Positions 3,311-21,979 of a DNA stretch of 64,000 bases are shown one piece after another. Below the pieces are notes generated by a model, which saw only the letters and a list, made by a program, of their open reading frames with translations, was not told where the DNA came from and did no database searches. Made by a program: the position numbers and the translations under genes. How positions within the stretch are numbered: position 1 is the first letter of the stretch; the number at the start of each line of letters is the position of its first letter. The stretch is taken from NCBI GenBank assembly GCA_008690995.1, contig VRMN01000011.1:496001-560000 (forward strand), written 5' to 3'. Origin of the DNA: Porphyridium purpureum (taxonomy: Eukaryota).

Positions 3311-4118
3311 CTTTAAATTCTCGCACGCTTGATGATGACAAGCGCACGAGCTCGGATGACACAACCCTTCTCAGATGACCGAACCCCAGCAACACGACGC
3401 ACACGGCACAGAGAACACAACCACACGACGCACACAACACAGACGACGAATACCCGGGGCGTGGAAAATCCAACGTATAGGGCCTCTACTATTGCCTTTC
3501 GCGTCGGCACAGACAGCACCGGTCTCGACAGGGGCAGGGTGTCGTAACGGACAAAGCCGCCGTCTGCCTTCAGTGCTCCAAGAGCACCGAAACCCCCCAG
3601 ACACGATGTGCTGCTGGCTCTGCTACACAGGCTCAGCAAAAGGCCCCACGTCTTCCGACGACCACGCCCAGGCACCCGACACCAAAGAACAACTCTTCCT
3701 TTATTCTCTGTGTCGTACTCCCTTGCCTCTTCTTCTTCCGCTCTAAAGAAAATCCGGGGAACCGCACAGGCCCGCGCCCATTATATACCCCGCCGTCCTT
3801 GCTGTCCTTGACGCGGAAGGGAGAAATTATTTCTCCCAAAGGCTGGGCTTTCCTCCGTTCGTTCCACAGAACGAAGCCACAGCCAGCCACGTCAGCAAGC
3901 GGCTCAATGGGTGCCGGCCGGCCGCCAAGCGGCTCCTGCTTCCCTCGGACACGCGACTCCGGCTCCTCGGGGCGAAAGACAACAATGCACAAAACCAGAG
4001 GTACAGGGTAAAAAACCACGCGGGCGAAAAAGCCCCTGTACCTCAAAGAATTCCGAGACGCCGTACCTCTAGGTGTACACCCAGGGCGTCTCTCGGACCG
4101 GAACACTTTTAATCCATG
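3311..4118 (-). repeat. 3' LTR of element A (808 bp)
   Basis: Matches 14735-15543 except for about 4 substitutions and 1 indel seen by eye. The pol stop codon (4109) lies inside it. Confidence 0.95.
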
Positions 4119-5997
4119 CTCCTCCTTCCGATCTGAGGGACGCGTAACATGTTCCAACACCTGATGTGACCTTCCGGAAACAAAGGCTTTGTCATCAAGT
4201 CGGACACGTTTTCTCCCGTCCTCACATACTCCAATGTCACCAACTTCTGCTTCTCGCAAATTTGGTGTATCCACGCCAAGTCCGTGGCTCTGGTTACTGC
4301 CATGTGATGCAACTTTGGCGAATATCCCATCTCGACCGCACGGAGAACAACTTGACTATCACAAAGCAGGGTCAACGCATAATCCCCCTCCTGCACGCTT
4401 CGAAGAAACGACAATGCCGGAAACAAAGATAACTGCACCGTTTCTTCCAGAGCGGCCATCTCAGACTCAGAGGTCGAAGAGCTAACAAAGCGTTGCCTTC
4501 TGGAGCTCCAATCGACCAGATACTTGTTTCCACCCGCGACCAAGTACGTCACTCTTCCAGACGTTGACTTGCGCGTTTCCGGGCATCCAGCAAAGTCGGC
4601 ATCAGCATAGCCCAAGACGCTTACGTCACCGACCTTCAATGACGTCATCCGCAAATACTCAAGTGGCTCACGAGGAACCTTCAAGTATTGCATGACGCGA
4701 ACCAGGAGTCTCTCAGCTGCGACGTTCCAGCTATCCACATACCGAGCCACCACTCCAACTGCGTAGGAGATATCCGGTCTGACCGTCCTGGCCAACCACA
4801 GCAGCCTCCCAACATGCTCGCGTATTTTCAGATGCCCATGTTCGACTTGAACATCCAATACAGCGTCAGCATTCATCTTCTCGCCTGGTGACTTCACTGC
4901 TCGCAGCACCTGCCCAAGCTCTTCTTCAAATTCCTTCACCACCAAGGTTTGGTAGTGATCATGATCCAACGAAAACCGTGTCGCCGACTCCGAGATCATG
5001 AGACCTAGGAACCTTAACGGGGCTCCTTCCGAGAGGACTTCTGGCTCCTTCTCAATGAGGAACTCTGACCTCAACTCTCGAAATATCTCACCCCGATCCT
5101 TCTCGGCACACGCGAGCAGGCCATCGTCGACATACAAGGCCAAGAGTGCAACAGATGCACTTCCCGCCATCTTTTTCACGTATACGTTCTTCTCGCCGTG
5201 AATCAAATCCCACCCGAACTTTTGAAGTCTTCTGCGGGCATCGATGGAAAAGTCAGACCCGCTTCTTGGTAAGCCATAAAGCGCCCTCCTTAAGCGAACG
5301 ACAAGTCCATCACCTCCTCCTGGAACGTGACGGGGCAACATGGCAAACGTCGGTGGTCCTGACAAGTCAGCGTGTAAGTACGCCGACGTCACATCGAACG
5401 ACACGATTTTCAATCCCAGGATCGCGGCCAAAGCTATCAACATTCTGATTGCAGACAGGCCCGCGGGCACCTCATAGTCAAACACATCCTGAGTGACCTT
5501 CCCTGAGGCATCCCAAATCCTATTTCCACCAGCAACAAGCCGACACTTGACCTTGCGAAACTCCTCCGGAAGCTCAGCGAACTTCAATCCGAATATAAAG
5601 TGTGTCCGCACAAATCGTGCGCCTGGGACCTTGAGAGCTTCTTCCCTTGAAATAGGTTGCTCATCCCATACCTTGAATCGAATCATCAAGTCCACTTCTT
5701 TTTGCATGGCTTCTCTTCCAGCCGAAGAAGCCAGAGCTTGGCTCGTCTGCAACAAAGTTGTCAAGTTCAATTGCGGTGTTTCTGGAGCAACTCCTGCGCG
5801 TTGCTTCCAATTTTCCTCCGAGAGGCCCATATTATGGGCCCGGGCTCGCACATCCTTTCCGTTTCTTGAATTGCGGAACACTGCCTTGTATTCTTGCAGA
5901 GTTCTTTCCCACTTCCCCCAGCCAAAGAGCCGTAAGCCATCCATGATGGCCTGATCCTCTTCCCGGCTCCAAGCTACACTGGGTTTTCGTTTCCCCC
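4109..5997 (-). CDS. pol: Element A pol, 3' part: Myb/SANT-like domain, Copia-type RT and RNase H (cut off from the 5' part by element C)
   Basis: Motifs KCRLVAGG, DVTSAYLHADL, LRRALYGL, LYVDD, RPDISYAV, GYADADFAG, STSG, SSSTSESE and SDLMTKPL are the Ty1/Copia RT-RNaseH series. The N-terminal segment WSREED..GL..FG.G.W is Myb-like. Confidence 0.93.
4119..4129 (-). promoter_or_regulatory. Polypurine tract of element A (GGAAGGAGGAG)
   Basis: Abuts the 3' LTR. The identical 11-mer abuts the 3' LTR of B. Confidence 0.85.
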
Positions 5998-6001
5998 TTC
6001 T

Positions 6002-6293
6002 TGTCACAAACGGAGCTTCTTTTCTTTACTTCTTCTTCTCTCCTCCTCTACCTACTCTCTTCTTCCTAGCCTTTTTTCTTCGTTCGGCTGCCGCTCGCTC
6101 TGTTTTATACCCGCCTTCCGGCGCCGCAACGGCTTGCCCGGCGGGTTCAGCCCTCGGAATAACCCAATCCCGCGGCCCTCAACATAACTCAGCTGTACCA
6201 CACGGTACACCCACAGCTGTACTTTCAGTACACTTAGGGACTGTACCTCTGCGTACTCGCTGTACTGAGACCTGCATCAGGTCGCTCGCGACA
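6002..6293 (-). repeat. 3' LTR of element C
   Basis: TGTCAC...GCGACA, repeated at 11937-12228. Purine-rich GGGAAGTGTGGGA lies immediately upstream on the minus strand (PPT). Confidence 0.95.
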
Positions 6294-6819
6294 TCCCACA
6301 CTTCCCGCTTATCCACAGCGACCATTGCGATAGCGTGTTCTAAGCCCACGCGCCGCATGCATAGCAGCCGTTCCCGTGCCGCTCAACAGGTTCAAGCACA
6401 ATGAGCTGAGATCGAGCGGACGAAGTACAGTGTAAGCTGACAGGGTACAGTGCCAGCAACAGGGCCAAAAAAATAAGGTGGCCGGTGCCGCTCACAAGTG
6501 ACGCCCACTGACAAGACCCCGTACAGGCTGCCATCCCCCTCCCCCGCTAACCTTAAAGGAAAGGTGCGCTGTTACGGCTCTGCCCAATGTCACCCCGGGG
6601 AATTACCCTAGCCACGGATCCCCAGCATTTCACAGGGGCAGTTTTCTCTAATCAGGGAGTGCCTAAGATCCTCTTCAATTCTCGTTTGCCAAACTGCCGA
6701 AATTTAGAGTATATACACCCCCAAATATGGACTCAGGTACAGTATTACTGTACTTCACTGTACACAGACTGTACTTCATTTTGTTCTTTATCATTCGTTC
6801 TACCGTCTTGCTGCGGGCA

Positions 6820-6956
6820 CGGCTCCTTCTTTACCGTCCAGCCATGGACACAGCTCCTTCTTTAATGTCCAGCAACGGACACAGCTCCTTCTTTATAGTC
6901 CAGCAACGGACCCAGCTCCTTCTTTACCGTCCAGCCACGGACACTCCATCTTTATT
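6820..6956. repeat. About 4.5 tandem copies of a 31-bp unit (CAGCTCCTTCTTTAccGTCCAGCcACGGACA) in the 3' untranslated region of element C
   Basis: Units start at about 6820, 6851, 6882, 6913 and 6944, with no spacers. Confidence 0.85.
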
Positions 6957-7002
6957 CGAACATTTTTTTTTGAGAGCAGCGACGGCCGATAGCCACCCAG
7001 CG

Positions 7003-10000
7003 TCAAACACCTTCTGCCATGTCTCGGTACGCGGCTACCAGCATGGGCGGGAGCGTCTTCTCAGCCTCCCATGTGTCGCCTCGCTTCCCCATACCCCGCC
7101 ATCTCACCTTGTACTCGCGGCCTCCACCCGCAGCCCGATCTTCCACAATTGCCTCCACCACCCAACTTGCATCTCCTCCAGCGAACACGTTCGTGCCGGC
7201 CATGTCTACCACGTCCGGGTCTGCCTTGTGCAAGCGGTTCACATGCACGAGCTGGCCATGGAGCTCTGCGTCATCTCGGCCGTTTGCGCTGACCACGACT
7301 GCGTGAACCCCGTTCCGCTTTGTGATGCGGAAAGGTCCGAGCCACGGCTTTGTCAGCTTGCGACCCTGCCTCGTACTTGGGCACCACACGTATACGATGT
7401 CGCCCTCGGCAAACGTTTCCTTGTTCCGATGAATGTTTCTGTCATAGTACCTTGCAAACCTCTCGGCGTTCTCCGACATCTTATTCCCGGCGAGCCGATA
7501 GGCGCGCGCCAGCTGTGCGGAGATATCTTGCGGTTGCTGGCCCCCTTCAACCGCTCGCGGTCCGGCCATGCTTGCCCAGTCCTTGGCTGGCGACCCAAAC
7601 ATCATTTCGTACGGCGAGAAGCCGGTGGCTGCGTGGCGCGACGTGTTGTACGCGTAGGTTACAACGGACAGCCACCTATCCCAGTCGCGCGAGCTTGCAC
7701 TGACGTACGCCGACAGCATCTTGCACAGGGTCGCATTGAAGCGCTCCACCCTTCCGTTCGTCTGCGGGTGGTAGGCTGTCGTCATGAGCCTCCGGATTCC
7801 GAGTCTGGCGCAAAGCGACGTGATCACCTCACCGACAAAGTTTGAGCCCCGGTCGGACAAGATGGACTCCGGCGGGCCAAAGACAGTCAACCACGTCTGC
7901 AGGAAACTCCGCGCCACGGTCTCTGCCTTCTCGTCCGGGAGCGCCACGGCAACCGCCCATCGCGTCCAAGCATCCATCATGACGAGCACCTTGATATTTC
8001 CCGTTCGCGTCTCCGGACTGATGGTGAGGATGTCCATGCCTACAATTTCAAAGCGTCTGGACGCCGAGTACTGCACCATCGCCGCGTTCCGGCGGGGTGG
8101 TGGTGCCTTGCGCGCTATGCACTCGTGGCAGCACCGAACGAACTTCCGAACGTCTTCTGTCCACCCGGGCCACCACCACTGCGCGTCGGCTATCCTCGCC
8201 GCCGTCCTCGCCGTCCCCATGTGAGCTGACAGCGGGGCTCCGTGATAGACGTTGAGAACTGCCGACACAAGCGCGTCAGGGACCACCCGCCTGGGCATGT
8301 CTTTCAGCAACGCAAACACAATCCCGTCTTCGTCCACGATATACTCAGGGAAGGAGTACTTTGGCGCGGGTCCTGATAGGTTCTTGAGCTCCGCGCAGAT
8401 TTGCTCGTCCTCTGCGTACGCTGCTCTGAGCTCGTCGTCCGTGGGCACAGCGTATAGCGCCCCACTGTCTTGCGTGTCCCGTACCTCCCGGACCTCTTCT
8501 TCCGTGCCAGTGTCCAGAGGAGTACGCGATAGCGCATCGGCCACGATATTCGCTGCGCCTGGCTTGTGCTTCACGTCAAACTCGAAATCTTGCACGCGCA
8601 TGATCCACCTTGCCGTCCGACCCCGTGGCTCTTTCTGGCGAAGCAGCCACAGCAGCGCCGAGTGATCCGTCACGAGAATGAACTTCTTGCCGAACAGATA
8701 GTGCCTGAACTTTTCCATGGATAGTATGGCACCCAAGCACTCTTGCTCCGTGACGCTGTAGTTCAGCTCTGCGCCTCGGAATGCCCTTGAGTAAAAGGCC
8801 ACCGGGCGCCGCTGGTCCCCTTGAAGCAAGACCGCGCCAATGCCCACCTGGCTCGCGTCGACTTCAAGAACCATCTCGGCGGCCGGATTGAATGCAACCA
8901 GGACTGCGCTACCGTCGTCCATCGGATCACCTAGCGCATGGCGTAGGTCTATGAACGCGGCGCGCTGGTCGTCCCCGAATCTGCTCGCCCACTCTGCGCC
9001 ACCGGCCGTCTTCCGGTGGAAGCCACCTTTCTTGTCCGTCAATCCGAGCCCAGTCAGCGCTCGCCTCAGCGGGAGGGCACGCTCCTCGAAGTTCGGTATG
9101 AAGTTACGAAACCAGCCGACCAGTCCCAGGAACCGCTGCAGGTCCTTCGCTTCTTCTGGCTCTGGCCACTCCAGGATTGCCCGCGTCTTATCTACCCCAG
9201 GCCGCAAACCTTGCGGGCCAATGCGATGGCCCAGAAACTGTACTTCTGCCAGAGCAATCTTGCACTTGCGGGCCGACAGTGTAAGTCCCGACGCCGCGAA
9301 CCTTCGCAAGATCTGACGAAGTCCTTCCACATGTTCCTCGAAGGTCTCATGTCCCACTGTCAGATCGTCAATGTAGATCTGCGCGTGTGCATGGCGCATA
9401 GGGCCCAAAATCCGGTTGTTGAGTCGCTGAAACGTTGGCGGGCTATTGCAGCAGCCCTGCGGCAGACGCGTGTATTCAAATAGCCCCTCACGTGTGATCA
9501 TGGCAGTCAAATGCATGCTTTCTGGCGCAAGGGGCACCTGGAAAAACCCGTCCTTGAGATCGAGAGCGCTCTTCCATCGGCGCCTCGAAAGCCAGTCGAG
9601 CATCTCCCCAACGTCTGGGATTGGGTACCTGTCCTTGATTGTGATTGCATTGAGCGGGCGAAAGTCGGTAGTCATCCGATACGATCCATCTGGTTTCCGG
9701 ATCAGTACGTTGGCTGCTGCACACTCCGACGTGCTCGGCTGCAGCACTCCCTTAGCGACAAGGGCTTCGACCAGGCTGCGCTCAGCCTCGTTCTCGGCCT
9801 CTGAGCGCCTGCGCACTTTGGCCACCAGAGGGCGCTGGCCCGGTTCGACAGTGATGGTGTGTTCCACCAGGTCCGTTAATCCCATGGACGGCCTGAACAG
9901 CACCCACGCCTCAGCTAGGACGTCGCCGACTCGTTTGCGCTGCTCGGGCTCGAGATGCCCAAGCTCGATGGCCGCGGCGTTGCGCAGGGCTTCCTCTTTC

Positions 10001-10611
10001 TCGGCCGCGTGCTTCTGCTCCAGCTGGGCGATTCGACGATCAATCTCGCCCGGTTCTTCAAGATGACCGATGTGTTCTGGGCCCGGCAGACCACTCACTT
10101 GCTCGAACGGTAGAGAACCTCCACGCTTGAAGAACACAGCTTGACCTGGCAGCACGGCCGCGACTTCTCGAACCTGGAAGTCCCAGCCGATTAAGAGATC
10201 TGTCTTGAGGTGTTCCGCCACTCGGACCGTCTCGCACGGAAAAACGAAAGACCCGAGATGCAGATCCAGAAACCCAACGCTGACTCTGCCCAAGGAGGCG
10301 CCGTCCGGCCCTCGCGCTCCCCAACTTGACGGCTGCGTTTTCAAGCCGAGCCGGTCAGCCACGCTCGGGCTCACCCATGTTGAGTTTGCGCCCGTGTCCA
10401 GAACTGCCAGTGCGACCACTGCCTGGCCACATGCGGTGAGCTTCACCCGCAACGTCGGACTGTTGTCCGCACGCACGGCCAGCTCCGCGTCGCCGTCTTG
10501 TTCCTTGGCGTACGCCGCGCCTTGCAACTCTGCCTCACCTGAGGCATCGCCCGGCTCCCACCATTCCATGCAGGGGGCAGCTACTGCTTGCTGCCCCACT
10601 GCCCGTTTTTT
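7003..10611 (-). CDS. pol: Element C pol: aspartic protease, RT, RNase H, integrase (HHCC, DDE, GPF) and C-terminal chromodomain; probably expressed by -1 frameshift
   Basis: Motifs LDTGA; DFRPLN, LDLKDGFFQ, PQGCCNSP, YIDD; DAS..GIGAVL, TDH, ADALSR; SDRG..F, PQTNGRVERFN; WLGPF; WVVEAIVEDR...EYKVRWRG....DTWE. Confidence 0.95.
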   Translation of the reverse strand, partial: KKRAVGQQAVAAPCMEWWEPGDASGEAELQGAAYAKEQDGDAELAVRADNSPTLRVKLTACGQAVVALAVLDTGANSTWVSPSVADRLGLKTQPSSWGARGPDGASLGRVSVGFLDLHLGSFVFPCETVRVAEHLKTDLLIGWDFQVREVAAVLPGQAVFFKRGGSLPFEQVSGLPGPEHIGHLEEPGEIDRRIAQLEQKHAAEKEEALRNAAAIELGHLEPEQRKRVGDVLAEAWVLFRPSMGLTDLVEHTITVEPGQRPLVAKVRRRSEAENEAERSLVEALVAKGVLQPSTSECAAANVLIRKPDGSYRMTTDFRPLNAITIKDRYPIPDVGEMLDWLSRRRWKSALDLKDGFFQVPLAPESMHLTAMITREGLFEYTRLPQGCCNSPPTFQRLNNRILGPMRHAHAQIYIDDLTVGHETFEEHVEGLRQILRRFAASGLTLSARKCKIALAEVQFLGHRIGPQGLRPGVDKTRAILEWPEPEEAKDLQRFLGLVGWFRNFIPNFEERALPLRRALTGLGLTDKKGGFHRKTAGGAEWASRFGDDQRAAFIDLRHALGDPMDDGSAVLVAFNPAAEMVLEVDASQVGIGAVLLQGDQRRPVAFYSRAFRGAELNYSVTEQECLGAILSMEKFRHYLFGKKFILVTDHSALLWLLRQKEPRGRTARWIMRVQDFEFDVKHKPGAANIVADALSRTPLDTGTEEEVREVRDTQDSGALYAVPTDDELRAAYAEDEQICAELKNLSGPAPKYSFPEYIVDEDGIVFALLKDMPRRVVPDALVSAVLNVYHGAPLSAHMGTARTAARIADAQWWWPGWTEDVRKFVRCCHECIARKAPPPRRNAAMVQYSASRRFEIVGMDILTISPETRTGNIKVLVMMDAWTRWAVAVALPDEKAETVARSFLQTWLTVFGPPESILSDRGSNFVGEVITSLCARLGIRRLMTTAYHPQTNGRVERFNATLCKMLSAYVSASSRDWDRWLSVVTYAYNTSRHAATGFSPYEMMFGSPAKDWASMAGPRAVEGGQQPQDISAQLARAYRLAGNKMSENAERFARYYDRNIHRNKETFAEGDIVYVWCPSTRQGRKLTKPWLGPFRITKRNGVHAVVVSANGRDDAELHGQLVHVNRLHKADPDVVDMAGTNVFAGGDASWVVEAIVEDRAAGGGREYKVRWRGMGKRGDTWEAEKTLPPMLVAAYRDMAEGV
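10574..10611 (-). promoter_or_regulatory. -1 frameshift signal of element C: A_AAA_AAC, 7-nt spacer, 8-bp stem GGGGCAGC/GCTGCCCC
   Basis: The heptamer is in the gag frame at 10605-10611, and pol is in the -1 frame and open across it. Confidence 0.8.
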
Positions 10612-11879
10612 GGTCCGTGGCTCAAGCCACCGTCCGGATACGGCGCACGTGGTGCTCCACCTTGGCCCGCGGGGCGATGCACTCCCCCATCGGCCCGTGG
10701 CCATCCATTGCGGCAATCCCTCTTCAAGTGTCCAAGTTCGCCGCACTGCCAGCACTGCGGCTGTCCGGGCAAAGCAGTCGGAAGGGCTTGGCGCTTGGCC
10801 TGTGGCCCGAAGCTCTCGACCTGGTACACATCCTCTGCGTACAGGCCGTAGTCACGACCGCGCTTCTGGATCGTCGTGCCCGGGACCTCGCCTATGCGGC
10901 CCACTCTCTCGCGGCCAAGCGGGCGTTGCTGGCCAAACGGAGGAAGCGGGCGACTCGGTAGACCCTTCAAACCATCTTCACCGACGTGGTCCACCAGAGC
11001 TGAGCGCAGCTTGGTGAACGAGACGCTCACGCCGATCATGCGGACCGTGTTCTTCAAGAACGCGGAGTCCATGGCTTCGATCAACACGTCCTTCTTGTCC
11101 TCGTCGTCCATCTTGAGCCCGTCAGCCTTGGTCTCCAGGTCGTTCAGAAAGACACTCAAGCTGGCTTTCCCCGGTTGGAACTTCATGCGGCGGAGCTCGG
11201 CTTTCAAAGCCTGGCGGTGCTCGACATTGAAAAACATGGACTCCAGTGCCTTCCACACACGGTTCGCTGCGCCGGGCCCTGCCGCATCGACATCTTTGAT
11301 CACGGCTTGGTACCTTGACACCGCGGGCCCACCAAAGCAAGCGCTGATGTGCTCCGCGACATTGTCCCTTGCGAGGCCAAGTGTGTCCGCGTGCGACTCC
11401 CAGCAGGTCCGCGACGCGAAGAAATGAGCGTCACCTGGGGCCTTGATAAGAACTTGAGCACTGCGGACCGCCTCGCGAAAGGTTGCTGCGAGCTTCAACT
11501 GCTCCTCCCAGAACGACCGATCCATGGTACGGCCCGAGGTCTGCGCCGAGTTGCGGCTGTGCGCCTGGGCCTCCAGTTCAGCAACGCGAGCGCGAAGGGC
11601 CATCACTTCGGCTCCGCCCGGTGCAGCTAGGTCTCCAACCGGGACAACGGACTCTGCGTCGGCTGCGGCTTCCAGGTGACCTGGCGTCCCCTGCTCATTG
11701 TCGACAGCTTCACCCTGGTGCTCCACGACAGGCCCGTCTTCTGGCGCTGGGCCCCCGGCACGAGCGGCCCCTGCTTCGATGATCGCGGATCCGCTGCGTG
11801 GCTCCCCAAGTCCTGCCACAACTGCTGCCTCGCGAGGCCCACCTGCCTCTCCAACTCCTGCCCCACGCCCACGCGCCAT
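10581..11879 (-). CDS. gag: Element C Gag with CCHC zinc knuckle
   Basis: CWQCGELGHLKRDC. First ATG at 11879, just downstream of the 5' LTR. Confidence 0.88.
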   Translation of the reverse strand: MARGRGAGVGEAGGPREAAVVAGLGEPRSGSAIIEAGAARAGGPAPEDGPVVEHQGEAVDNEQGTPGHLEAAADAESVVPVGDLAAPGGAEVMALRARVAELEAQAHSRNSAQTSGRTMDRSFWEEQLKLAATFREAVRSAQVLIKAPGDAHFFASRTCWESHADTLGLARDNVAEHISACFGGPAVSRYQAVIKDVDAAGPGAANRVWKALESMFFNVEHRQALKAELRRMKFQPGKASLSVFLNDLETKADGLKMDDEDKKDVLIEAMDSAFLKNTVRMIGVSVSFTKLRSALVDHVGEDGLKGLPSRPLPPFGQQRPLGRERVGRIGEVPGTTIQKRGRDYGLYAEDVYQVESFGPQAKRQALPTALPGQPQCWQCGELGHLKRDCRNGWPRADGGVHRPAGQGGAPRAPYPDGGLSHGPKNGQWGSKQ

Positions 11880-11936
11880 CCTATCCCACTCCCAACCCCA
11901 CACTTCCTCGCTCCCACACGACCAATTTGCAAATTA

Positions 11937-12228
11937 TGTCACAAACGGAGCTTCTTTTCTTTACTTCTTCTTCTCTCCTCCTCTACCTACTCTCTTCTTC
12001 CTAGCCTTTTTTCTTCGTTCGGCTGCCGCTCGCTCTGTTTTATACCCGCCTTCCGGCGCCGCAACGGCTTGCCCGGCGGGTTCAGCCCTCGGAATAACCC
12101 AATCCCGCGGCCCTCAACATAACTCAGCTGTACCACACGGTACACCCACAGCTGTACTTTCAGTACACTTAGGGACTGTACCTCTGCGTACTCGCTGTAC
12201 TGAGACCTGCATCAGGTCGCTCGCGACA
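11937..12228 (-). repeat. 5' LTR of element C, with TATA-like GGTATAAAAC at 12037-12046
   Basis: Direct repeat of 6002-6293. Confidence 0.95.
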
Positions 12229-13765
12229 TTCTTCCAATAGGTAGGGGAACGTCCTCCTCCAAGTTCCCGGACACACGCGCCTCGGCCGTATTCGTAGGCA
12301 ACACCATAGTCTCTTGACTATCCGGTTCTTCCTGCCTAGAGTGAAAGTCGATTTCACCCTCACGTGCCGAGACCTCCTCGTCATCCTTTGTTTCCAAAAT
12401 CCGCATTGGAAACACTTCAGGGAACGCCTTGAAGTCCTGAGTGCGAGTCAGCCTCGGTGCCGCACTCGTCCACTCCTCCTGAGGAAGGACCCAGATTGCC
12501 AGCGGATGCTCCGCAACTCCAACAAGGACTCCAATCTTTCCTCTGGGTGCATACTTGTTCTCAGGTTGATCATTCTTGAACACCACCTTGCATCCAAATG
12601 GTACTGCTACCTTCCCCCGCTTCCATCTCTCACCGTACCTCATTTCATACGGAGACTTCCCAGACCTCTTGTCTGGGTGCAGCCGATTGAACATGAAGAC
12701 GAAATGCTGAGCGGCATGCAAAAACCACCGCTTTCCCAGCCCAGACTGCAGGAGATTTGCTCGTACCCCCTGATTCAAAGTATGATGGAAACGTTCCTGT
12801 TCAGCGTGGCTATTTGGTCTATGTGGGACGCCAATCTCATGCTTCACGAGATTCTCCCGTACCAAATTGCTCACATTTCCCCTGAACTCGTTTCCATCAT
12901 CTGTCCTCAGTACCTTTGGCCATCCTCGCCCGGCTTGCACGCTTGTCCAAGCTTCAGCAACCGCCGTATGCGTTTTGGCTCTCAATCCTGCCAGTGTGGC
13001 CCACCTCGTCGCTCTATCGATGTGCGTCAGTATGTACTTTGCTCCATCGGTGGCTTCCACGTTACGTCCGGGCTCCACCAGGTCGATCCCAACTTCGTCA
13101 TTGAACGACAAAGTGGACAAGTCCTTCTCCAGCCTTCTTGCTGGTCGGCTCTTGATCTTGGCCACAACACACGTCTCACAATCATCCCGCATCGGCATGT
13201 GAGTCAACGCATGTTCCATCCCGGCCATCTTTCCTTCGACCTCTTCACTGGCACTCTCCTCTTCTCCATCGCACGCTTGATTTCCGCTTGACTCGGAAAG
13301 AGCGTCCACGACATTCACCATCGCACAATCTTCCACATTTTTAAGTCCCAAGTCCATCGAACCCCTCTGCCAATCAATCCTCGGGTTCACGCGACTCAGC
13401 CAGTCCCACCCGAGAATTGCATCCATTTGCAGAGGCCCGACATAAAACTTGACCGGCCCTTTCCAGAACCCAAGATCAACATGCTGCAACACCGGGCCAT
13501 GCACTAAGACACTTTGCCCACCCGCAAGCTTGACCATTCCGTTCTCGCGCCCTTCAAATCTGCCGACAAAGCGAGATCCAAGAAAATTGTGCGATGCTCC
13601 GCTGTCCACCAGAAATTGGACAGACTCGCCATCTAAAGTTCCACGCTTGTAGAGCAACCTCGACGCCGCATCAGCGCGCCAGACCTCACCTACAAAGCCC
13701 ATCCCGGGAGGTTCCGTTCCCCTCGAGTGCACCTCCCAACTTCTCCCTCGAGGTTTTAGTTTTCC
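12229..13765 (-). CDS. pol: Element A pol, 5' part: Gypsy-type aspartic protease and Copia-type integrase
   Basis: FLVDSGASHNF...DAILGWDWL..VNPRIDW; HALTH..DCETC; GIDLV, RTDDGNEF, QERFH; PFGCKV...KYAPRGKIGVLVG. Removing C and one TTCT restores the frame: ...VPLPIGR|RGKRKPSVAWSREED. Confidence 0.93.
13704..13765 (-). promoter_or_regulatory. -1 frameshift signal of element A: G_GAA_AAC, 5-nt spacer, H-type pseudoknot
   Basis: Heptamer 13759-13765 directly before the gag TAA. Stem 1 is CCTCGAG/CTCGAGG and stem 2 is GGGAGGT/ACCTCCC. Confidence 0.8.
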
Positions 13766-14712
13766 GGGCCTCCCGCCAAGTGCCCATTCCGCTTTGGGCA
13801 ATTGGGTTTGATGTGGCCGCGCTGCCCGCAATGGTAGCATCTGACTTTGCCCACGTCCGCATGCTTGCGCTTCTCCGGCTGGCGTTTCTCCACGACGCCC
13901 AAATCCATTGGCGCCGTCCCGGCATACGACGAGCTGTTCCGGTAGTTTGGACTAGAGGCGCCATGAAAAGCCTCCCTCATGTCTCCTCCAAACCTACCAA
14001 CCTGCTCCGCAGCCAACGCCGCCCTCAGCGACTCTTCCAGCGTCTTCGTGTCCTGACGCGCCACCTCAAGGCGAAGCTTCTCCTTCAGGCCGAGAGTGAA
14101 GATGGTGTTGAGCTCGGCATCCGTCACACTATCCACTGACAGGGCCACCATCCTCAGGCGCTGCTCAAACTCAGCAACAGTCATCTTGCCCTGCTTCAGC
14201 TGATACAAGTTCGTTCGAGCAGTCAGGTATGCCTGCGGCGGCTCAAATGCCGTCCGCACGAAGTTCGCGAACGCATTCCAACCGGACTCGGCCAGTGCCA
14301 TCCTCTGTTCCTCAGGGCGAGCTGCCCACAACAGCGCGGCATCCTTCTCAAAGAAGCGCGACGCTACGATCACCTTCTGAGACTCCAGCGCTCCAGCTGG
14401 CATGCACATGTCCAAGTCTTGCTTCATCCTCGACAACCACTCGTTCACAACGAGTTTGTCGCGCTGTCCGTCGTATTTCCTCAAGCTGCGTCCAATCAGC
14501 GATGCAACGGTCCTTTCCGTTTCGCCGGGACCAGCTGACACAGATGCCTGATGCATCACATTCTGCAGCATCTCCTGCAAGAGGCGATTTCCCTCCTGCA
14601 GCTGCACAATCATCATTTCTTGTCCTCCGATACGAGCATGAAGCTGGTTGAAAGCTTCAATCCACGACGCGCCGCCCTGCAGGCCCTGCACGTCCATTCC
14701 CTCAGAATCCAT
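13756..14712 (-). CDS. gag: Element A Gag (Retrotrans_gag/Ty3-type capsid, PMDLG motif, CCHC knuckle), 318 aa
   Basis: LRKYDG, LYQLKQGKMTVAEF, FTLGLK, APMDLG, CYHCGQRGHIKPNC. Confidence 0.92.
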   Translation of the reverse strand: MDSEGMDVQGLQGGASWIEAFNQLHARIGGQEMMIVQLQEGNRLLQEMLQNVMHQASVSAGPGETERTVASLIGRSLRKYDGQRDKLVVNEWLSRMKQDLDMCMPAGALESQKVIVASRFFEKDAALLWAARPEEQRMALAESGWNAFANFVRTAFEPPQAYLTARTNLYQLKQGKMTVAEFEQRLRMVALSVDSVTDAELNTIFTLGLKEKLRLEVARQDTKTLEESLRAALAAEQVGRFGGDMREAFHGASSPNYRNSSSYAGTAPMDLGVVEKRQPEKRKHADVGKVRCYHCGQRGHIKPNCPKRNGHLAGGPEN

Positions 14713-14722
14713 CTTCGCCGAT

Positions 14723-14734
14723 GCGATGATACCA
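14723..14734 (-). promoter_or_regulatory. Primer-binding site of A (TGGTATCATCGC), probably for initiator tRNA-Met
   Basis: Abuts the 5' LTR. The first 8 nt match the TGGTATCA iMet-type PBS, and the same 12-mer occurs in B. Confidence 0.75.
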
Positions 14735-15543
14735 CTTTAAATTCTCGCACGCTTGATGATGACAAGCGCACGAGCCCGGATGACACAACCCTTCTCAGAT
14801 GACCGAACCCCAGCAACACGACGCACACGGCACAGAGAACACAACCACACGACGCACACAACACAGACGACGAATACCCGGGGCGTGGAAAATCCAACGT
14901 ATAGGGCCTCTACTATTGCCTTTCGCGTCGGCACAGACAGCACCGGTCTCGACAGGGGCAGGGTGTCGTAACGGACAAAGCCGCCGTCTGCCTTCAGTGC
15001 TCCAAGAGCACCGAAACCCCCCAGACACGATGTGCTGCTGGCTCTGCTACACAGGCTCAGCAAAAGGCCCCACGCCTTCCGACGACCACGCCCAGGCACC
15101 CGACACCAAAGAACAACTCTTCCTTTATTCTCTGTGTCGTACTCCCTTGCCTCTACTTCTTCCGCTCTAAAGAAAATCCGGGGAACCGCACAGGCCCGCG
15201 CCCATTATATACCCCGCCGTCCTTGCTGTCCTTGACGCGGAAGGGAGAAATTATTTCTCCCAAAAGGCTGGGCTTTCCTCCGTTCGTTCCACGGAACGAA
15301 GCCACAGCCAGCCACGTCAGCAAGCGGCTCAATGGGTGCCGGCCGGCCGCCAAGCGGCTCCTGCTTCCCTCGGACACGCGACTCCGGCTCCTCGGGGCGA
15401 AAGACAACAATGCACAAAACCAGAGGTACAGGGTAAAAAACCACGCGGGCGAAAAAGCCCCTGTACCTCAAAGAATTCCGAGACGCCGTACCTCTAGGTG
15501 TACACCCAGGGCGTCTCTCGGACCGGAACACTTTTAATCCATG
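14735..15543 (-). repeat. 5' LTR of element A (809 bp), with TATA-like GGTATATAAT at 15204-15213
   Basis: Direct repeat of 3311-4118. Confidence 0.95.
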
Positions 15544-15549
15544 GTTCTC

Positions 15550-16346
15550 CTTGGAATTTCTCCCTTTCTGCTTTGTAACCGAATCAACAAAACCGGATCG
15601 CTTCACCGATAACAGGAACTGGAAACCGCCACACCCCGGAAACTGACAAACCGACGACGAACCGACACACCGAAACGAACGGAAGGACAAGCAGGACAAT
15701 CAGAGAAAAGTGGCTAGAAAGGAAGAGAGGACAGAAAATTCAACTTATAGGGGACTACGAGAGGGAGTGGACCGGTCTTGACAAGTGAAGGGTGATGGAA
15801 GGTACGTTTAAACCCCAGCTGCCTTTTTAAAAACACTCCAGACCGATATCCGCTCGCACAACACGCTAGCGTGCCTCTCCCGCAAATCCAACCCAAGTCT
15901 TCCAACGACTGCCTCAATCCAACTAACCAATTCTCTTTTTATTCTATTTGCCCTTACCTCTTCTTCTACCTTGACCTGGAAATTCCTGGGAACCAGCTTG
16001 CCCCTTCGTCCTTTTATACCCTTCGTCCTTGCTCTTTCCAGCAAGGACGGGAGAACAAATTTCTCCAACAGGACGAATTTCCACCACAGGTTTTGATTCG
16101 TTCCACAACTCGCAACCACAGCCGGCCACGTATCCGGAAAATGGCCGGGAGGGCGCGTCAAGAACGAATCCAGAAGCTTCGGCCGGCCTTTGACCTTTGC
16201 ACAAGGCCACACAAAACGACAATGACAAACATTTCGCAGGTCCGAGATCATCACGCTTCTCGAACAATCTTTCATCATAGAACTTTCTAGGGTTTTGTAC
16301 TCAAAACCCTACGGCGTCTCTCGGGGCGGAACCCTAAAATTCCACG
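15550..16346 (-). repeat. 3' LTR of element B
   Basis: Direct repeat of 20514-21310. The pol stop (16334) lies inside it. Confidence 0.95.
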
Positions 16347-19300
16347 CTCCTCCTTCCGGTCTGAGGGACGCGTAACTTCTCCCAGCACTTAATGTGGCCC
16401 TCCGGAAATAAGGCCTTGGTCATTAAGTCCGCCACATTTTCGTCCGTCTTCACAAATGCCAGTTTCACAAGTTTCTGCTTTTCGCACACCTGATGCAACC
16501 AGGCCAAATCTGTTGCTCGGGTTATCGCCATATGATGCAACTTTGGCGAGTACCCCATCTCTATTGCTCGCATCACAGCTTGATTGTCACACATCAAAAT
16601 CACCGAGAACTCTCCGTCACGTATACTTCGCAAGAAAGACAATGCAGGAAACAACGAGAGTTGCACAGTTTCCTCTAGGGCGGCCAGCTCCGACTCTGAA
16701 GTCGACGAGCTCACGAAACGCTGCTTTCTTGAAGACCAATCCACTAGGTACTTGTAATCTCCAGCAACTAAGTACGTTGCTCTTCCAGAAGTCGACACAC
16801 GACTCTCTGGACAACCAGCAAAGTCAGCATCCGTGTATCCAAGAATGTTCACCCCTCTGATGCCTTCCTTGAGATTCCCCAACACGTGATACTCCAATGC
16901 TTCCCGAGGTGTTTTCAAATACTGCACGACTCGTACGAGCAGCCTTTCTGCTGCCACATTCCACTTGTCAACGTACCGGGCAATCATACCGACTGCATAC
17001 GCAATATCAGGTCGAACCGTTCTGGCGAGCCACATCAGCCTCCCGACGTGTTCTCTTACTTTCAAAGTCTTCCAGATGACTTGATAATTCAGAACTTCCT
17101 CGCCATCTAGCTTCTCAGATGGTGACTTCACGGCACGCAATACGCGTCTAATATCCTGCTCAAATTCCCGAATGACCACATCTTGATACTCTTGATTCGC
17201 CAAACTCACGCTCCCATTTTTGAGGGAAATGCTCGTCCCCAGGAATCTCAAGGATCCTCCTTCCGTCAATAGTTCTGGTGCTTTTTCTATGAGAAACTCT
17301 TGTTTCAATTCTTCGATGATTCCTGGGCGTTCCTCCTCTCGACAGGCTAATAGACCATCATCCACGTACAGAGCCAACAACGCAACTGACGAACTTGCAG
17401 CATTTCTCCGGACGTACACATTCTTTTCACCATGCACGAGCTTCCACTGGAACTTTTGCAATCTCCTCCGAGCATCTTGTGAGAAATCCGAGCCGCTCCT
17501 GGGCAAGCCATACAGCGCCTTTCTCAGCCTGACTACTGTGTCTTTTGAATCACAAATTTCACGCGGTAAGTATGCAAACGTAGGTGGCCCAGACAGGTCC
17601 GCATGGAGGTATGCCGAGCTGATGTCGAAACTAACAATCTGAAGGCCCAGAATTGCAGCCACAGCTATTATCATTCGGATAGCTGACAAACCAGCAGGCG
17701 TCTCATAATCAAAAATGTCATTCGTCGCAGCTCCATCGGACCCCCATATCCTGTTTCCCCCGGCCACCAAGCGGCACTTCACCTTGCGAAATTCTTCCGG
17801 CATCTCAGCAAATTTCAGACCGAAAATGAAATGTGTGCGTACGAAACGAGCACCAGGTTGCCTCCGGGCCTCCTCCAGCGTCAAGGGATTCTCATCCCAT
17901 ACCCCAAATCTCAGCATGGATTTGACTTCTTTTTCCATCGCGGCTCGTCCTTGCTCAGACGCTAACGCCGCTCCAGTTTTCAGCAAAGTCGTTAAGTTCA
18001 ACTGTGGGATCGTCACTGGACCACCCGTGCCTGCTGCCCGTTCCTCGTCAACCACTCTCACTTTCAATGCCTCGATCTCTTTCTCAAGCTCCGCTTCTCG
18101 AGCTCTGAGAGCATCGATACGACGATCCAAGTCCTGCACCGCTTCAACCGCGGATGGTTCGTCCACTTCTGGCAACTCTTCCTGCTGGCTCAGGCTCACC
18201 ATCTCTCGTTCAATTCCCTTTAAAGGGAACTCATGGGTAAATGCCTTAAAATCCTGAGTGCGAATTACTTTTGGGGTCTCACTCGTCCAGTCATCCCGAG
18301 GAAGCACCAAAATTGCCATCGGATGCTCTCCAACGCCGACGAGAATGCCAACTTTTCCTCGCGGTGCATACTTATTGTCAGGCTGATCATCTTTGTAGAC
18401 CACCTTGCACCCGAATGGCAAACTAAGATTTCTCGGCGACCATTTTTCACCACGTCGTAATTCAAACGGCGTCTTTCCAGACTTCCTGCCCACGTGAAGT
18501 CTATTCGTCATGAACGCAAAATGCTGCGCGGCGTGCATGAACCAACGCTTCCCGAGTCCGGCCTGCACAAGATTCGCACGGATTCCCTGATTCAGCGTGT
18601 GGTGAAACCGCTCCTGTTCAGCATGACTGTTTGGCCTGTACGGAATCCCCACCTCGTGCTTTATGAGGTGTTCACGCACCAGTCTCCCCACATCTCCCTT
18701 GAACTCATTCCCATCATCCGTTCGCAAAACCTTCGGCCATCCTCTCCCGGCTTGCACACTTTTCCAAGCGTCCGCAACCGCCGTGTGGGTTTTCGCACGT
18801 AGCCCCGCCAATGTCACCCATCCTGTGGCTCTGTCGATATGCGTCAAAATAAACTTTGAACCATCTACCGACTTCACATTTCGCCCAGGCTCCACCAAGT
18901 CAATTCCGACTTCATCATTGAATGACAATGCACTGACATCTTTCTCCAGCCTTCGGGCCGGGCGTCGCTTTATCTTCGCCACGACACACGTCTCACAGTC
19001 TCTTTGCATAGGCATGTGAGTCAACTCGTGTTCCGAAGCAGCCACGCTCTGATTTTTCCCGTCAAGCTCGGGAACCACTTCTTCAACATTTTCCAACGTG
19101 CATATTTCCTTCCCCTCGGGCCTCGTTTCCATCAGTCCCTTCTGCCAATCAATCTTAGGATTCACCATCTTGAGCCATTTCCACCCTAAGATGGCATCCA
19201 TACGAATGGGACCGATATAAAACTCGACGTTCCCTATCCAGAAACCGAGGTCCACCGCAAGCACAATGGGGCCGTGCACCTTCATTCTCTGTCCTCCCGC

Positions 19301-19546
19301 AAGCTCGACCATGCATTCATCGCAACTGGACTTTACGCTTGCGTCCAAGAATCGGGACCCCAGGAAATTATGCGACGCTCCACTGTCAATCAAGAAGTCG
19401 ATTTTTGAACCACTCACTTTCCCATGTTTGTAGAAGAGCCTTGACCTCGCACCCTCGTGCGCAACACCTTCCACAACACCCATTACAGGAGGCTCCATTC
19501 CCCTCGAGATCTCCTCCTGTCTTGGCTCTCGAGGTCTTAGTTTTCC
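16334..19546 (-). CDS. pol: Element B pol: PR, IN, leucine zipper, RT, RNase H (Copia order); -1 frame relative to gag
   Basis: FLIDSGASHNF; HELTH..DCETC; DDE core; KCRLVAGG, DISSAYLHADL, LRKALYGL, YVDD; GYTDADFAG, CDNQAV, ADLMTKAL. The frame is open from the slippery site at 19546. Confidence 0.95.
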   Translation of the reverse strand, partial: GKLRPREPRQEEISRGMEPPVMGVVEGVAHEGARSRLFYKHGKVSGSKIDFLIDSGASHNFLGSRFLDASVKSSCDECMVELAGGQRMKVHGPIVLAVDLGFWIGNVEFYIGPIRMDAILGWKWLKMVNPKIDWQKGLMETRPEGKEICTLENVEEVVPELDGKNQSVAASEHELTHMPMQRDCETCVVAKIKRRPARRLEKDVSALSFNDEVGIDLVEPGRNVKSVDGSKFILTHIDRATGWVTLAGLRAKTHTAVADAWKSVQAGRGWPKVLRTDDGNEFKGDVGRLVREHLIKHEVGIPYRPNSHAEQERFHHTLNQGIRANLVQAGLGKRWFMHAAQHFAFMTNRLHVGRKSGKTPFELRRGEKWSPRNLSLPFGCKVVYKDDQPDNKYAPRGKVGILVGVGEHPMAILVLPRDDWTSETPKVIRTQDFKAFTHEFPLKGIEREMVSLSQQEELPEVDEPSAVEAVQDLDRRIDALRAREAELEKEIEALKVRVVDEERAAGTGGPVTIPQLNLTTLLKTGAALASEQGRAAMEKEVKSMLRFGVWDENPLTLEEARRQPGARFVRTHFIFGLKFAEMPEEFRKVKCRLVAGGNRIWGSDGAATNDIFDYETPAGLSAIRMIIAVAAILGLQIVSFDISSAYLHADLSGPPTFAYLPREICDSKDTVVRLRKALYGLPRSGSDFSQDARRRLQKFQWKLVHGEKNVYVRRNAASSSVALLALYVDDGLLACREEERPGIIEELKQEFLIEKAPELLTEGGSLRFLGTSISLKNGSVSLANQEYQDVVIREFEQDIRRVLRAVKSPSEKLDGEEVLNYQVIWKTLKVREHVGRLMWLARTVRPDIAYAVGMIARYVDKWNVAAERLLVRVVQYLKTPREALEYHVLGNLKEGIRGVNILGYTDADFAGCPESRVSTSGRATYLVAGDYKYLVDWSSRKQRFVSSSTSESELAALEETVQLSLFPALSFLRSIRDGEFSVILMCDNQAVMRAIEMGYSPKLHHMAITRATDLAWLHQVCEKQKLVKLAFVKTDENVADLMTKALFPEGHIKCWEKLRVPQTGRRSVEF
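19485..19546 (-). promoter_or_regulatory. -1 frameshift signal of element B: G_GAA_AAC, 5-nt spacer, H-type pseudoknot
   Basis: Heptamer 19540-19546. Stem 1 is CCTCGAGA/TCTCGAGG and stem 2 is ACAGGAGG/CCTCCTGT. Confidence 0.85.
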
Positions 19547-20484
19547 GGCTCTGGCGGACCACCTGCCAAGCGCTCCTTCAATTTAGGGCATTTGGGCTTA
19601 ATGTGTCCACGTTCTCCACAATGGTAACACTTCACTTTGGTCTTGCCAGACTTCCGCTTGTCCATGGCTCCCAAATCCATTGGTGCGCTACCAGAATGCG
19701 ACGAGAACGCCCTGCTATGAGTCGATGACGAGTTCTTGATCACTTGACTCATATCTCCTCCGAACTTTGCAACCTGCTCAGCTGCCAACGCAACTTTCAG
19801 TGATTCTTCCAAGGTCCTTGTGTCCTGACGGGCCACCTCAATACGCAGTTTCTCCTTCAAGCCCAGCGTGAAGATGGTGTTCAGTTCTGCATCTGTCACA
19901 TCTTCAACTGATAACGCTGTCATCCTGAGATTCTGCTCAAATTCTGCGACCGTCATTTTCCCTTGCTTCAACTGATACAGATTGGTGCGCGCTGTCAAAT
20001 GCGCCTGCGGCGGCTCAAACGCTGTGCGCACGAAGTTTGCGAACGCATCCCATCCGGCCTCTGCAAGGCCCTTTCTCTGCTCCTCCGGACGAGCTGCCCA
20101 AAGCAGCGCTGCGTCCCTCTCGAAAAAGCGACTTGCAACAATCACTTTCTGCGAGTCCAAAGCATCTGCGGGCATGCAGATATCCAGGTCGCTCTTCATT
20201 CGCATCAGCCATTCATTGACAACGAGCTTGTCACGCTGACCATCAAACTTTCTCAAACTGCGCCCAATTAACGCGGCCATGGCACGATCGTTGTCACCAG
20301 ACCCAGACGCCACGGTCTGCTGGCGCAACAAAACATGCATCATTTCATGGAGGTTACGATTCGCTTCCTGCACTTGTGCCATCATCATCTCCTGTCCCGC
20401 AATGCGCGCATGCAGCTGATTAGCTGCCTCAATCCATGCCGCATTCTCCTGCGGGACATTCATTTCCATTTCATGGCTTTCCAT
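19537..20484 (-). CDS. gag: Element B Gag (Ty3/Gypsy-type, PMDLG, CCHC)
   Basis: Close homolog of A Gag; CYHCGERGHIKPKC. First ATG at 20484. Confidence 0.92.
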   Translation of the reverse strand: MESHEMEMNVPQENAAWIEAANQLHARIAGQEMMMAQVQEANRNLHEMMHVLLRQQTVASGSGDNDRAMAALIGRSLRKFDGQRDKLVVNEWLMRMKSDLDICMPADALDSQKVIVASRFFERDAALLWAARPEEQRKGLAEAGWDAFANFVRTAFEPPQAHLTARTNLYQLKQGKMTVAEFEQNLRMTALSVEDVTDAELNTIFTLGLKEKLRIEVARQDTRTLEESLKVALAAEQVAKFGGDMSQVIKNSSSTHSRAFSSHSGSAPMDLGAMDKRKSGKTKVKCYHCGERGHIKPKCPKLKERLAGGPPEPEN

Positions 20485-20513
20485 TTTCTCCAAACAACCG
20501 GGCGATGATACCA

Positions 20514-21310
20514 CTTGGAATTTCTCCCTTTCTGCTTTGTAACCGAATCAACAAAACCGGATCGCTTCACCGATAACAGGAACTGGAAACCGCCACACCC
20601 CGGAAACTGACAAACCGACGACGAACCGACACACCGAAACGAACGGAAGGACAAGCAGGACAATCAGAGAAAAGTGGCTAGAAAGGAAGAGAGGACAGAA
20701 AATTCAACTTATAGGGGACTACGAGAGGGAGTGGACCGGTCTTGACAAGTGAAGGGTGATGGAAGGTACGTTTAAACCCCAGCTGCCTTTTTAAAAACAC
20801 TCCAGACCGATATCCGCTCGCACAACACGCTAGCGTGCCTCTCCCGCAAATCCAACCCAAGTCTTCCAACGACTGCCTCAATCCAACTAACCAATTCTCT
20901 TTTTATTCTATTTGCCCTTACCTCTTCTTCTACCTTGACCTGGAAATTCCTGGGAACCAGCTTGCCCCTTCGTCCTTTTATACCCTTCGTCCTTGCTCTT
21001 TCCAGCAAGGACGGGAGAACAAATTTCTCCAACAGGACGAATTTCCACCACAGGTTTTGATTCGTTCCACAACTCGCAACCACAGCCGGCCACGTATCCG
21101 GAAAATGGCCGGGAGGGCGCGTCAAGAACGAATCCAGAAGCTTCGGCCGGCCTTTGACCTTTGCACAAGGCCACACAAAACGACAATGACAAACATTTCG
21201 CAGGTCCGAGATCATCACGCTTCTCGAACAATCTTTCATCATAGAACTTTCTAGGGTTTTGTACTCAAAACCCTACGGCGTCTCTCGGGGCGGAACCCTA
21301 AAATTCCACG
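20514..21310 (-). repeat. 5' LTR of element B, with TATA-like GGTATAAAAG at 20975-20984
   Basis: Direct repeat of 15550-16346, followed directly by PBS TGGTATCATCGC. Confidence 0.95.
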
Positions 21311-21979
21311 TTCTCATATCGTCGTACAACTGTACCTACACCGAGGGAGCTGTTTCGCCCGTGCCGTGAAGCACGAGGGGTCAGAAGACTCAGTCGAGTG
21401 CAGGCGAACGTGTCGCGGCGAGTCGCGCGCCTGCGGCCACAACAACTGTGCCACCCATACACACACGCGCGATCGGCCACTTGTCCTCAGAATCGCGACC
21501 CTAGCGCGGGCTTCATGCGCGCTATGAAGGATGGCAAGCCCACAGCCGCACATCCAGCGTCTCCGTAACCGCGAAACCTGGGTGAGTTCGCCGTTCTGTT
21601 CGCTAAACCGATTCGTTATCGGTTCAACTCGCCGGATGCGAATTTCATAAGCGACGCATAGAGAAAAGTACAGTGAACTCTGTTGGGTAACTTTGATCGA
21701 TTCGGTTGAACGTAGCCCGCGGGAGATTTTCGTGGAAGCTGATGCACCTGTGAATGCAGTGGGTGGGGCAGGATAAAGTCAGTGAAGGAGAGGTGATGAG
21801 TACGACACAGACTTGTACGAGTTCGCAGATAACTGCAACAAGGGCCGAAGGAAGCGCATGAGGAGGCTGGTGAGGACGCTGCAGTGAAACTCGTTCGAAG
21901 GTAGAGGTTGGAGAGGGCGACGTGGGCTGAAACGACTTGAATAGAGGTTAAGATGGCTGGATCACGACGGGGTGATGCG

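Follow-up and report, generated by a model that had tools for sequence, protein, structure and literature searches.

The first 21.3 kb of a 64,000-nt window of the Porphyridium purpureum genome (contig VRMN01000011.1, positions 496,001 to 560,000) is occupied by three minus-strand long terminal repeat (LTR) elements, A, B and C. In the present study, elements A and B were found to join a Gag and a protease (PR) of Ty3/Gypsy type to an integrase (IN), a reverse transcriptase (RT) and an RNase H (RH) of Ty1/Copia type. The two superfamilies are regarded as having separate lines of descent. We observed directly which domains are present and in what order, in which frames they are read, and a conserved frameshift signal, and the build recurs in several families; it is a real, recently mobile, multi-family inter-superfamily hybrid, which on the tested features belongs to neither Copia nor Gypsy. 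With a probability of roughly 0.8, A and B represent a recently inserted lineage in which the gag and protease of a deep-branching Copia element were likely replaced long ago by Ty3/Gypsy ones, with a predicted -1 frameshift and likely untrimmed integration. The initial annotation, made from the sequence alone, had proposed a stable inter-superfamily recombinant lineage, and the recurrence of the build in at least five Porphyridium families supports that proposal; the Gag, PR, IN, RT and RH motifs that it named were all found in B and A.

Element B (15550-21310) is intact, with LTRs identical over 797/797 nt and a 5-bp target site duplication (TSD), GAGAA, and the boundaries first assigned to it proved exact. 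Element A (3311-15543) has LTRs of 809 and 808 nt that differ by four substitutions and one gap, a TSD of AGAAC, and a pol split by element C (6002-12228), a nested Gypsy chromovirus. The TSDs of A and B are offset by one base, placing both elements at a near-identical insertion site. The primer binding site (PBS), TGGTATCATCGC, whose primer would by tRNA rules be initiator-Met tRNA, and the polypurine tract (PPT), GGAAGGAGGAG, are common to A and B. A and B are recently inserted, diverged members of one lineage, in line with the earlier description. Database proteins 99-100% identical to those of B were P. purpureum entries, and eight of the 24 listed sequencing runs were compared by contig. 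A single 4224-nt contig of run X1 covers 16317-20540, from the PBS to the PPT of B, with 6 differences; run X2 contains the entire B unit; and in one contig comparison three of four runs had contigs that traverse the A pol without element C. Runs X19 and X20 are the only RNA runs on record among those with the element, and contigs cannot show transcription. Circular copies, considered on account of contig joints that go back, were not accepted, since such joints are expected from identical LTRs.

Profile comparisons assigned the Gag of both elements to the Gypsy type. The B Gag matched Retrotrans_gag (PF03732) at 37.7 bits (cut-off 24.1) and Ty3_capsid (PF19259) at 34.8 bits (cut-off 29.1), and the A Gag matched the same models at 41.8 and 34.0 bits, both above cut-off; the Copia Gag models PF14223 and PF13961 (UBN2/Retrotran_gag_2) gave no match at E<=0.05 in either Gag, and a profile built from 25 Copia Gags reached 0.5 bits. 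A capsid-only profile of six hybrid Gags gave 29-48 bits with three Gypsy-type Gags, at most 4.2 bits with 25 canonical Copia Gags and at most 0.9 bits with 10 N-terminal regions from other proteins of Copia order, nine of which carry the short integrase finger described below. When capsid profiles were aligned by hhalign, the hybrid profile gave 98.2% against Gypsy, 41% against Copia and 0.1% against the 10 other Copia-order N-termini. The Gypsy reference set in these comparisons was small (three Gags and two PRs, partly found with hybrid queries). The capsids of the hybrid families have the motifs YDG.RD....W and PM[DE]LG in common, and the B capsid matched other hybrid capsids at E 1e-12 to 1e-15, with no significant match to that of element C or of protein P0239. 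Moreover, a Logan Gag 57% identical to that of B places the A/B type in another source.

The PR was likewise of retroviral type. PF13650 (Asp_protease_2) and PF13975 (gag-asp_proteas) matched the B PR at 22.0 and 20.9 bits, both below cut-off, and the A PR at 26.2 bits each, above cut-off for PF13650 only, and Pol_BBD (PF22936) had no match to the PR of A or B. The retroviral-type motif ILG..WL is present, and the Copia-type LLS motif was not found by motif and profile comparison. A profile of five hybrid PRs scored 27.3 and 16.1 bits with two Gypsy PRs, at most 5.9 bits with 14 PRs of its own RT branch, and a median of 5.0 and maximum of 16.3 bits with 42 canonical Copia PRs; the best match of the B PR in the PDB was ASPRV1 (E 0.0056). 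Those 14 PRs, all from outside the Porphyridium clade, form one family, and over 92 columns their alignment to the canonical Copia PR reaches 97.4%. Since other branch members keep a Copia-type PR, it is likely that the front end was replaced by a Gypsy one. As initially annotated, Gag and PR did not score best to Copia; the scores favoured Gypsy over canonical Copia and also over the Gag and PR found elsewhere in the RT branch to which A and B belong.

Structural comparison was less decisive. The first Gag model, with a predicted local distance difference test score (pLDDT) of 49, had no structural match at E<=0.001 and was dropped. For a B capsid model with pLDDT 87, dArc1, Ty3 and PEG10 filled places 1 to 9 in Foldseek, with the Copia capsid 16th; taken with the VIA-align ranking given below, the modelled fold appears to add little to the choice between Gypsy and Copia, with no clear separation.

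The enzymes following PR are of Copia type. RVT_2 (PF07727) matched the RT at 67.6 bits in B and 61.4 bits in A (cut-off 31.6), RVT_1 had no match, and the Gypsy order RT-RH-IN was also not found in A or B, in keeping with the Copia-type IN-RT-RH arrangement originally assigned. The RT is 24-30% identical to canonical Copia matches. From a search across 1.84 billion representatives, the 150 best matches were obtained. One RT-RH tree held 90 of the 176 rows with profile coverage, chosen as the top 60 by score, one in four of the remainder and a few named ones, with near-copies dropped, and the other held 54 rows under a mixture model with a quick search only; the trees carried no named Copia or Gypsy reference set, GalEa, CoDi and PyRE included. 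In both, B fell in a branch of 33-34 rows set apart from all other Copia rows at 100 in the Shimodaira-Hasegawa-like approximate likelihood ratio test (SH-aLRT), with 34 branch rows against 20 other Copia rows in the 54-row tree. Within it, an inner clade of 16 rows (support 89) comprised every Porphyridium row (13 in all), together with an MMETSP transcript, a Logan protein and a protein of unknown source.

Branch members with an integrase mostly carry a very short finger, H-x3-5-H-x5-8-C-x2-C, and the hybrid INs cluster with other short-finger INs at 96/97. The B IN scored 120 bits with a short-finger relative, 61 bits with canonical Copia and 37 bits with element C. An Atlas search with the IN as query ranked unnamed clusters first, followed by clusters with Copia IN domains, and says little about its affinity. 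Although IN and RT-RH both tree with Copia-order elements, the IN tree by itself does not appear to fix the superfamily of the integrase. A metagenome scan of open reading frames of at least 300 aa at 80 distant loci recovered no short-finger integrase matching the pattern. Several short-finger branch members (P0099, P0113, P0114, P0116, P0118, P0130 and P0214) carry extra domains, namely AAA_28, CCCH fingers in Gag, and zf-CW.

In Porphyridium, Retrotrans_gag, Ty3_capsid and a retroviral-type PR stand ahead of these enzymes in at least five families (A, B, P0082, P0084 and P0241), and five more proteins of the Porphyridium clade are records without a front end. The 90% clusters of Pol hold 16 (B) and 17 (A) member sequences, which are predicted proteins and not a copy count. 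A and B, and probably P0240 and P0090, are in two frames, and the gene models of P0082 and P0084 are single-frame. Three further Porphyridium families, P0078, P0245 and P0244, have the RT-RH of the hybrid clade, yet they carry a UBN2 Gag, a Pol_BBD protease and an IN that trees with canonical Copia; forcing their INs together with those of the hybrids was rejected by the approximately unbiased (AU) test (p 2.5e-5). A canonical Copia Gag-PR-IN on hybrid-clade RT-RH in three families would represent a second swap; within one genome, judged by sequence, a single RT-RH stock bears foreign front ends of two kinds.

The initial annotation had placed pol in the -1 frame, and this holds for the sequences of both A and B. 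In both, gag ends in CCG GAA AAC UAA, which contains the heptamer G_GAA_AAC, and G_GA is listed among the exceptions to the XXX rule of slippery heptamers (PMC5009743). A predicted pseudoknot follows, in which 15/15 pairs are kept in A and B, two of them with changes on both sides, so that a heptamer, spacer and 3' structure typical of -1 frameshift elements all appear to be present, and Pol is predicted to be made by a -1 frameshift at G_GAA_AAC. Between A and B the synonymous difference (pS) was 0.71-0.79 and the nonsynonymous difference (pN) 0.17-0.24, alike in gag and pol; purifying selection acts on both halves, and the signal was retained despite near-saturated synonymous sites. The public gene model P0004 (family A) omits the zinc knuckle and the frameshift region, apparently via a predicted intron, and thereby presents a single Gag-Pol; the other long members of its cluster (P0064-P0077) may omit them likewise.

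The integrated ends of both elements, C(G/A)TGG...AAG, extend two bases beyond TG...CA, being CG-TGGAATTT...AAATTCCA-AG in B and CA-TGGATT...AATTTAA-AG in A, and TSDs were obtained only with the C...G boundaries. These C...G ends with a 5-bp duplication are a newly observed feature here. Among the loose ends listed for other insertions, B had three distinct flanks per end, and A had nine rows at the right end and one at the left, at the boundary or at most 5 nt outside; none of the rows listed for A and B lay 2 nt inside the LTR boundaries, and three rows lay well within the A LTR. Because the PBS abuts the LTR, the DNA copy should bear 2 nt beyond CA, as do those of retroviruses and Ty3 before trimming (PMC8487063, PMC5408687), and the Ty1 IN needs no 3' processing, unlike those of retroviruses and Ty3 (PMC8487063). 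We lean slightly towards an A/B integrase that does no trimming and joins the terminal G. A related LTR (runs X4 and X15, loose end at window position 14750) ends in AAG and is followed by a different PBS starting TGGCAGG, which points to a primer switch within the lineage. Finders that demand TG...CA would miss such elements, and the ends offer a natural test of whether 3' trimming and a terminal CA are required.

These data suggest the following course of events. The swap point would lie between PR and the zinc finger of the integrase, and the probable origin of the hybrid is a template switch between RNAs packaged together, or a nested insertion. The swap probably happened once, given the capsid motifs shared by five families and the position of the hybrid Gags on one side of a weakly supported branch. 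The RNA would be packaged in a Gypsy-type shell, the DNA copy delimited by PPT and PBS would carry 2-nt extensions like those of retroviruses, and a Ty1-like integrase without 3' processing would join the terminal G; the absence of trimming may have let the inner CA drift to AA in family A. On a wider view, for which we consider the odds even, a deep, hitherto undescribed Copia branch has radiated in Porphyridium and its RT-RH took up two foreign front ends (a Gypsy Gag-PR in at least five families and a canonical Copia Gag-PR-IN in three), with A and B integrating retrovirus-like ends untrimmed via the terminal G, against the near-universal CA rule. If this is true, LTR retrotransposons are modular across superfamilies, and shell with protease and enzymes are exchangeable.

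Several observations weigh against this account. In VIA-align the capsid model had the C-terminal domain of PEG10 first (Z 13.1, root-mean-square deviation (rmsd) 2.9, 87 aligned), the runner-up was the Copia capsid (Z 11.2, rmsd 6.0, 154 aligned), and Ty3 came in place 30 (Z 9.0). The three Gypsy reference Gags had been found by hybrid queries and were included in the alignment of the capsid model. Besides the sub-threshold Pfam scores of the B PR, PF13650 and PF13975 are also matched by P0152, a Copia-type PR from the same branch, and the B PR, left out of the hybrid profile, scored 18 bits against 23.6 for a plant Gypsy PR, so that A and B may have had a separate donor. The AU test left a grouping of the hybrid INs with two long-branched Gypsy INs unrejected (p 0.19). 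The hybrid families formed one RT-RH clade in 0/200 bootstrap trees, with monophyly unrejected by the AU test (p 0.23), and the monophyly of the hybrid Gags was weak (one side of a 74/82 branch). Covariation in the pseudoknot was not significant (103/500 shuffles, two sequences). Furthermore, the Ty1 IN requires a terminal CA in vitro (PMC8487063), and the joining of a terminal G would therefore need a changed specificity. Searches for the Gypsy donor gave distant matches only (two at E 8e-4 among five, one at E 1e-4 among two), and three scans of viral contigs found nothing. Element C was rejected as the donor, the B capsid having no significant match to it.

A variant that leaves the chimerism intact, in which the same Copia branch captured a Gypsy gag-protease several times independently, is unlikely, though it is the strongest competitor. 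It would account for the failure of the hybrids to group as one clade in either RT-RH or IN, for an A/B PR poorly matched by other hybrids, and for the coexistence of two-frame (A/B, probably P0240/P0090) and single-frame (P0082, P0084) architectures; the shared capsid motifs, the strong mutual matches of the capsids cited above and the placing of the hybrid Gags on one side of a branch, albeit at 74/82, speak instead for a single replacement.

It is improbable that no swap occurred and that the Gypsy-like Gag and PR are ancestral features retained by an ancient lineage with Copia order, its relatives having converged on or acquired Copia-type front ends. All LTR capsids share one fold, with the Copia capsid second in VIA-align, the branch is deep and long, and in three Porphyridium families a canonical Copia front end has indeed been acquired. 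However, the 14 tested branch PRs outside the Porphyridium clade belong with canonical Copia PR (97%) and lack a match to the hybrid profile, the Gags of those members lean to the Copia Gag (79%) and not to Gypsy (0.15%), and the hybrids are nested inside the branch, hence several independent gains would be needed.

Lower still stands the proposal that A and B are members of a previously named Copia clade, for instance GalEa (CoPorcru1/2), in which the front end was overlooked. GalEa is the only Copia clade that we found reported from this species, and two GalEa-like Porphyridium cruentum elements, from joined accessions, were placed by RT-RH only (Piednoel 2013, PMC3587641). GalEa elements, as characterised in Donnart 2017 (PMC5445492), have TGT...CA LTRs of 138-311 bp, a single ORF, the PBS TGGTAGCAGAGC, an RNase H with SDAS and a D(49-54)D(35)E core, whereas B and A have C...G LTRs of 797-809 bp, two frames, TGGTATCATCGC, TDADFAG and D(60)D(34)E. 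In this comparison by features, none of those published for GalEa was seen in B, and the match to a named clade that the initial annotation had kept in view did not materialise. Finally, an assembly artefact or a dead nested fragment, with a Gypsy front joined by chance to a Copia back, has practically no claim even in a nest of three elements where A is interrupted by a Gypsy element, being refuted by the single open frame from PR to RH within identical LTRs and TSD, by contigs of other runs that span the unit and its Gag-to-RH junctions, by purifying selection on both halves and by recurrence in at least five families.

Compared with known systems, A and B resemble Ty1/Copia (Pseudoviridae, Tnt1-type) in the PR-IN-RT-RH order, the RVT_2 RT, the ADxxTK of RNase H, the SH3-like IN tail and the 5-bp TSD, but differ in a Gag that is not UBN2-type, a PR that is not Pol_BBD, the lack of a gag_pre-integrase domain, the very short HHCC finger, the D(34)E spacing, the -1 frame and the C...G ends. 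They share with Ty3/Gypsy (Metaviridae), PEG10, Arc and ASPRV1 the Retrotrans_gag/Ty3_capsid Gag and the retroviral-type PR, and with PEG10 the -1 heptamer and pseudoknot, predicted in A and B; unlike in Ty3/Gypsy, the RT, RH and domain order are Copia, there is no chromodomain and the ends are apparently untrimmed, in contrast to Ty3. PyRE10G of Porphyra yezoensis is reportedly a copia-like element with a gypsy-like integrase; judged by title, it is likewise a red-algal Copia having a Gypsy-like part, which is the integrase there but Gag and PR in A and B. Gmr1-like elements (Goodwin and Poulter 2002) are said to be Gypsy-like with Copia order; they share, again by title, an IN ahead of RT in an element with Gypsy parts, although the RT and RH of A and B are Copia. 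Plant Copia elements also depart from TG...CA, but in lotus by substitutions with a first base that is always T (PMC9804982), whereas the A/B ends are extended by 2 nt, with first base C and last base G. Llorens 2009 (PMC2774666) listed Copia branches and a chromodomain in CoDi-A. In the passages considered of Neumann 2019 (PMC6317226), the main plant reference survey, chimeric-looking elements were removed as likely prediction errors and red algae were unmentioned. No paper in the literature searched describes Copia enzymes behind a Gypsy Gag-PR; the search did not extend to subscription journals or to GyDB, REXdb and Repbase, and a database entry for these families may exist. A multi-family, recently active hybrid means that a Gypsy capsid and PR can package and mature Copia enzymes, and the rules of compatibility among shell, protease cleavage site and enzyme become testable in a culturable alga.

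The features are collected in Table 1. Beyond the initial annotation, the analysis added the nesting of C in A, the non-TG...CA ends, the D(60)D(34)E spacing and the H-x3-H-x6-C-x2-C finger.

Table 1. Features of elements A, B and C, in window coordinates
Feature	Position	Strand	Remarks
B 5' LTR	20514..21310	-	797 nt; start CG-TGGAATTT, end AAATTCCA-AG; ends backed by loose ends of other insertions
B PBS TGGTATCATCGC	20502..20513	-	abuts LTR directly; same 12 nt in A
B gag	19537..20484	-	315 aa from first ATG: coiled coil, Ty3/Gypsy-type capsid, PMDLG, CCHC knuckle
B candidate -1 slippery heptamer G_GAA_AAC	19540..19546	-	just ahead of gag stop; same in A at 13759-13765
B predicted H-type pseudoknot	19485..19534	-	5 nt past heptamer; stems of 7 bp and 8 bp
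B Gypsy/retroviral-type aspartic protease	19169..19423	-	LIDSGASHNF ... DAILG..WL
B integrase	18230..19030	-	short H-x3-H-x6-C-x2-C finger, D(60)D(34)E core, weak SH3_retrovirus match
B Copia-type reverse transcriptase	16883..17950	-	RVT_2
B Copia-type RNase H	16397..16840	-	TDADFAG ... ADLMTK
B PPT GGAAGGAGGAG	16347..16357	-	identical in A
B 3' LTR	15550..16346	-	identical to 5' LTR
B TSD GAGAA	15545..15549	-	second copy 21311-21315
A 5' LTR	14735..15543	-	809 nt; start CA-TGGATT, end AATTTAA-AG
A gag	13756..14712	-	capsid region 86% identical to B
A pol part 1 (PR, IN)	12229..13951	-	broken by element C
Element C	6002..12228	-	Gypsy chromovirus, PR-RT-RH-IN-chromodomain, TG...CA ends, 4-bp TSD; outside hybrid
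A pol part 2	4109..5997	-	Myb-like linker domain, RT, RH
A 3' LTR	3311..4118	-	TSD AGAAC at 3306-3310 and 15544-15548

The pol frame of B stops within the 3' LTR, at 16334. The IN-RT linker of family A contains a Myb-like domain (5831-5974, minus strand), also seen in P0085 and weakly in P0078, and its counterpart in B is a coiled-coil-like stretch; the domain of A is possibly a captured targeting domain. The A/B target (3295-3310, 21311-21335) sits in an imperfect palindrome, TACAGTTG...CAACTGTA. A and B share their target within 1 bp, but since the flanks of other insertions differ, a strictly sequence-specific mode of targeting was rejected. Rfam gave 0 matches in window 1-26000 at E<=1 and ARAGORN 0 tRNAs in the whole window, and hence no RNA-gene target was found beside the insertion.

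As in A and B, the pol of element C is in the -1 frame, and A_AAA_AAC occurs close to the gag end (10581-10851, minus strand), and the zinc knuckle is the sole Pfam match of its Gag. Between its pol and 3' LTR, about five 31-bp repeats form an array at 6805-6959. The remainder of the window (21941-64000) holds host genes for a PsbQ-like protein, aldose epimerase, coatomer alpha, fructosamine kinase, RAI1, seipin and a fatty-acid desaturase.

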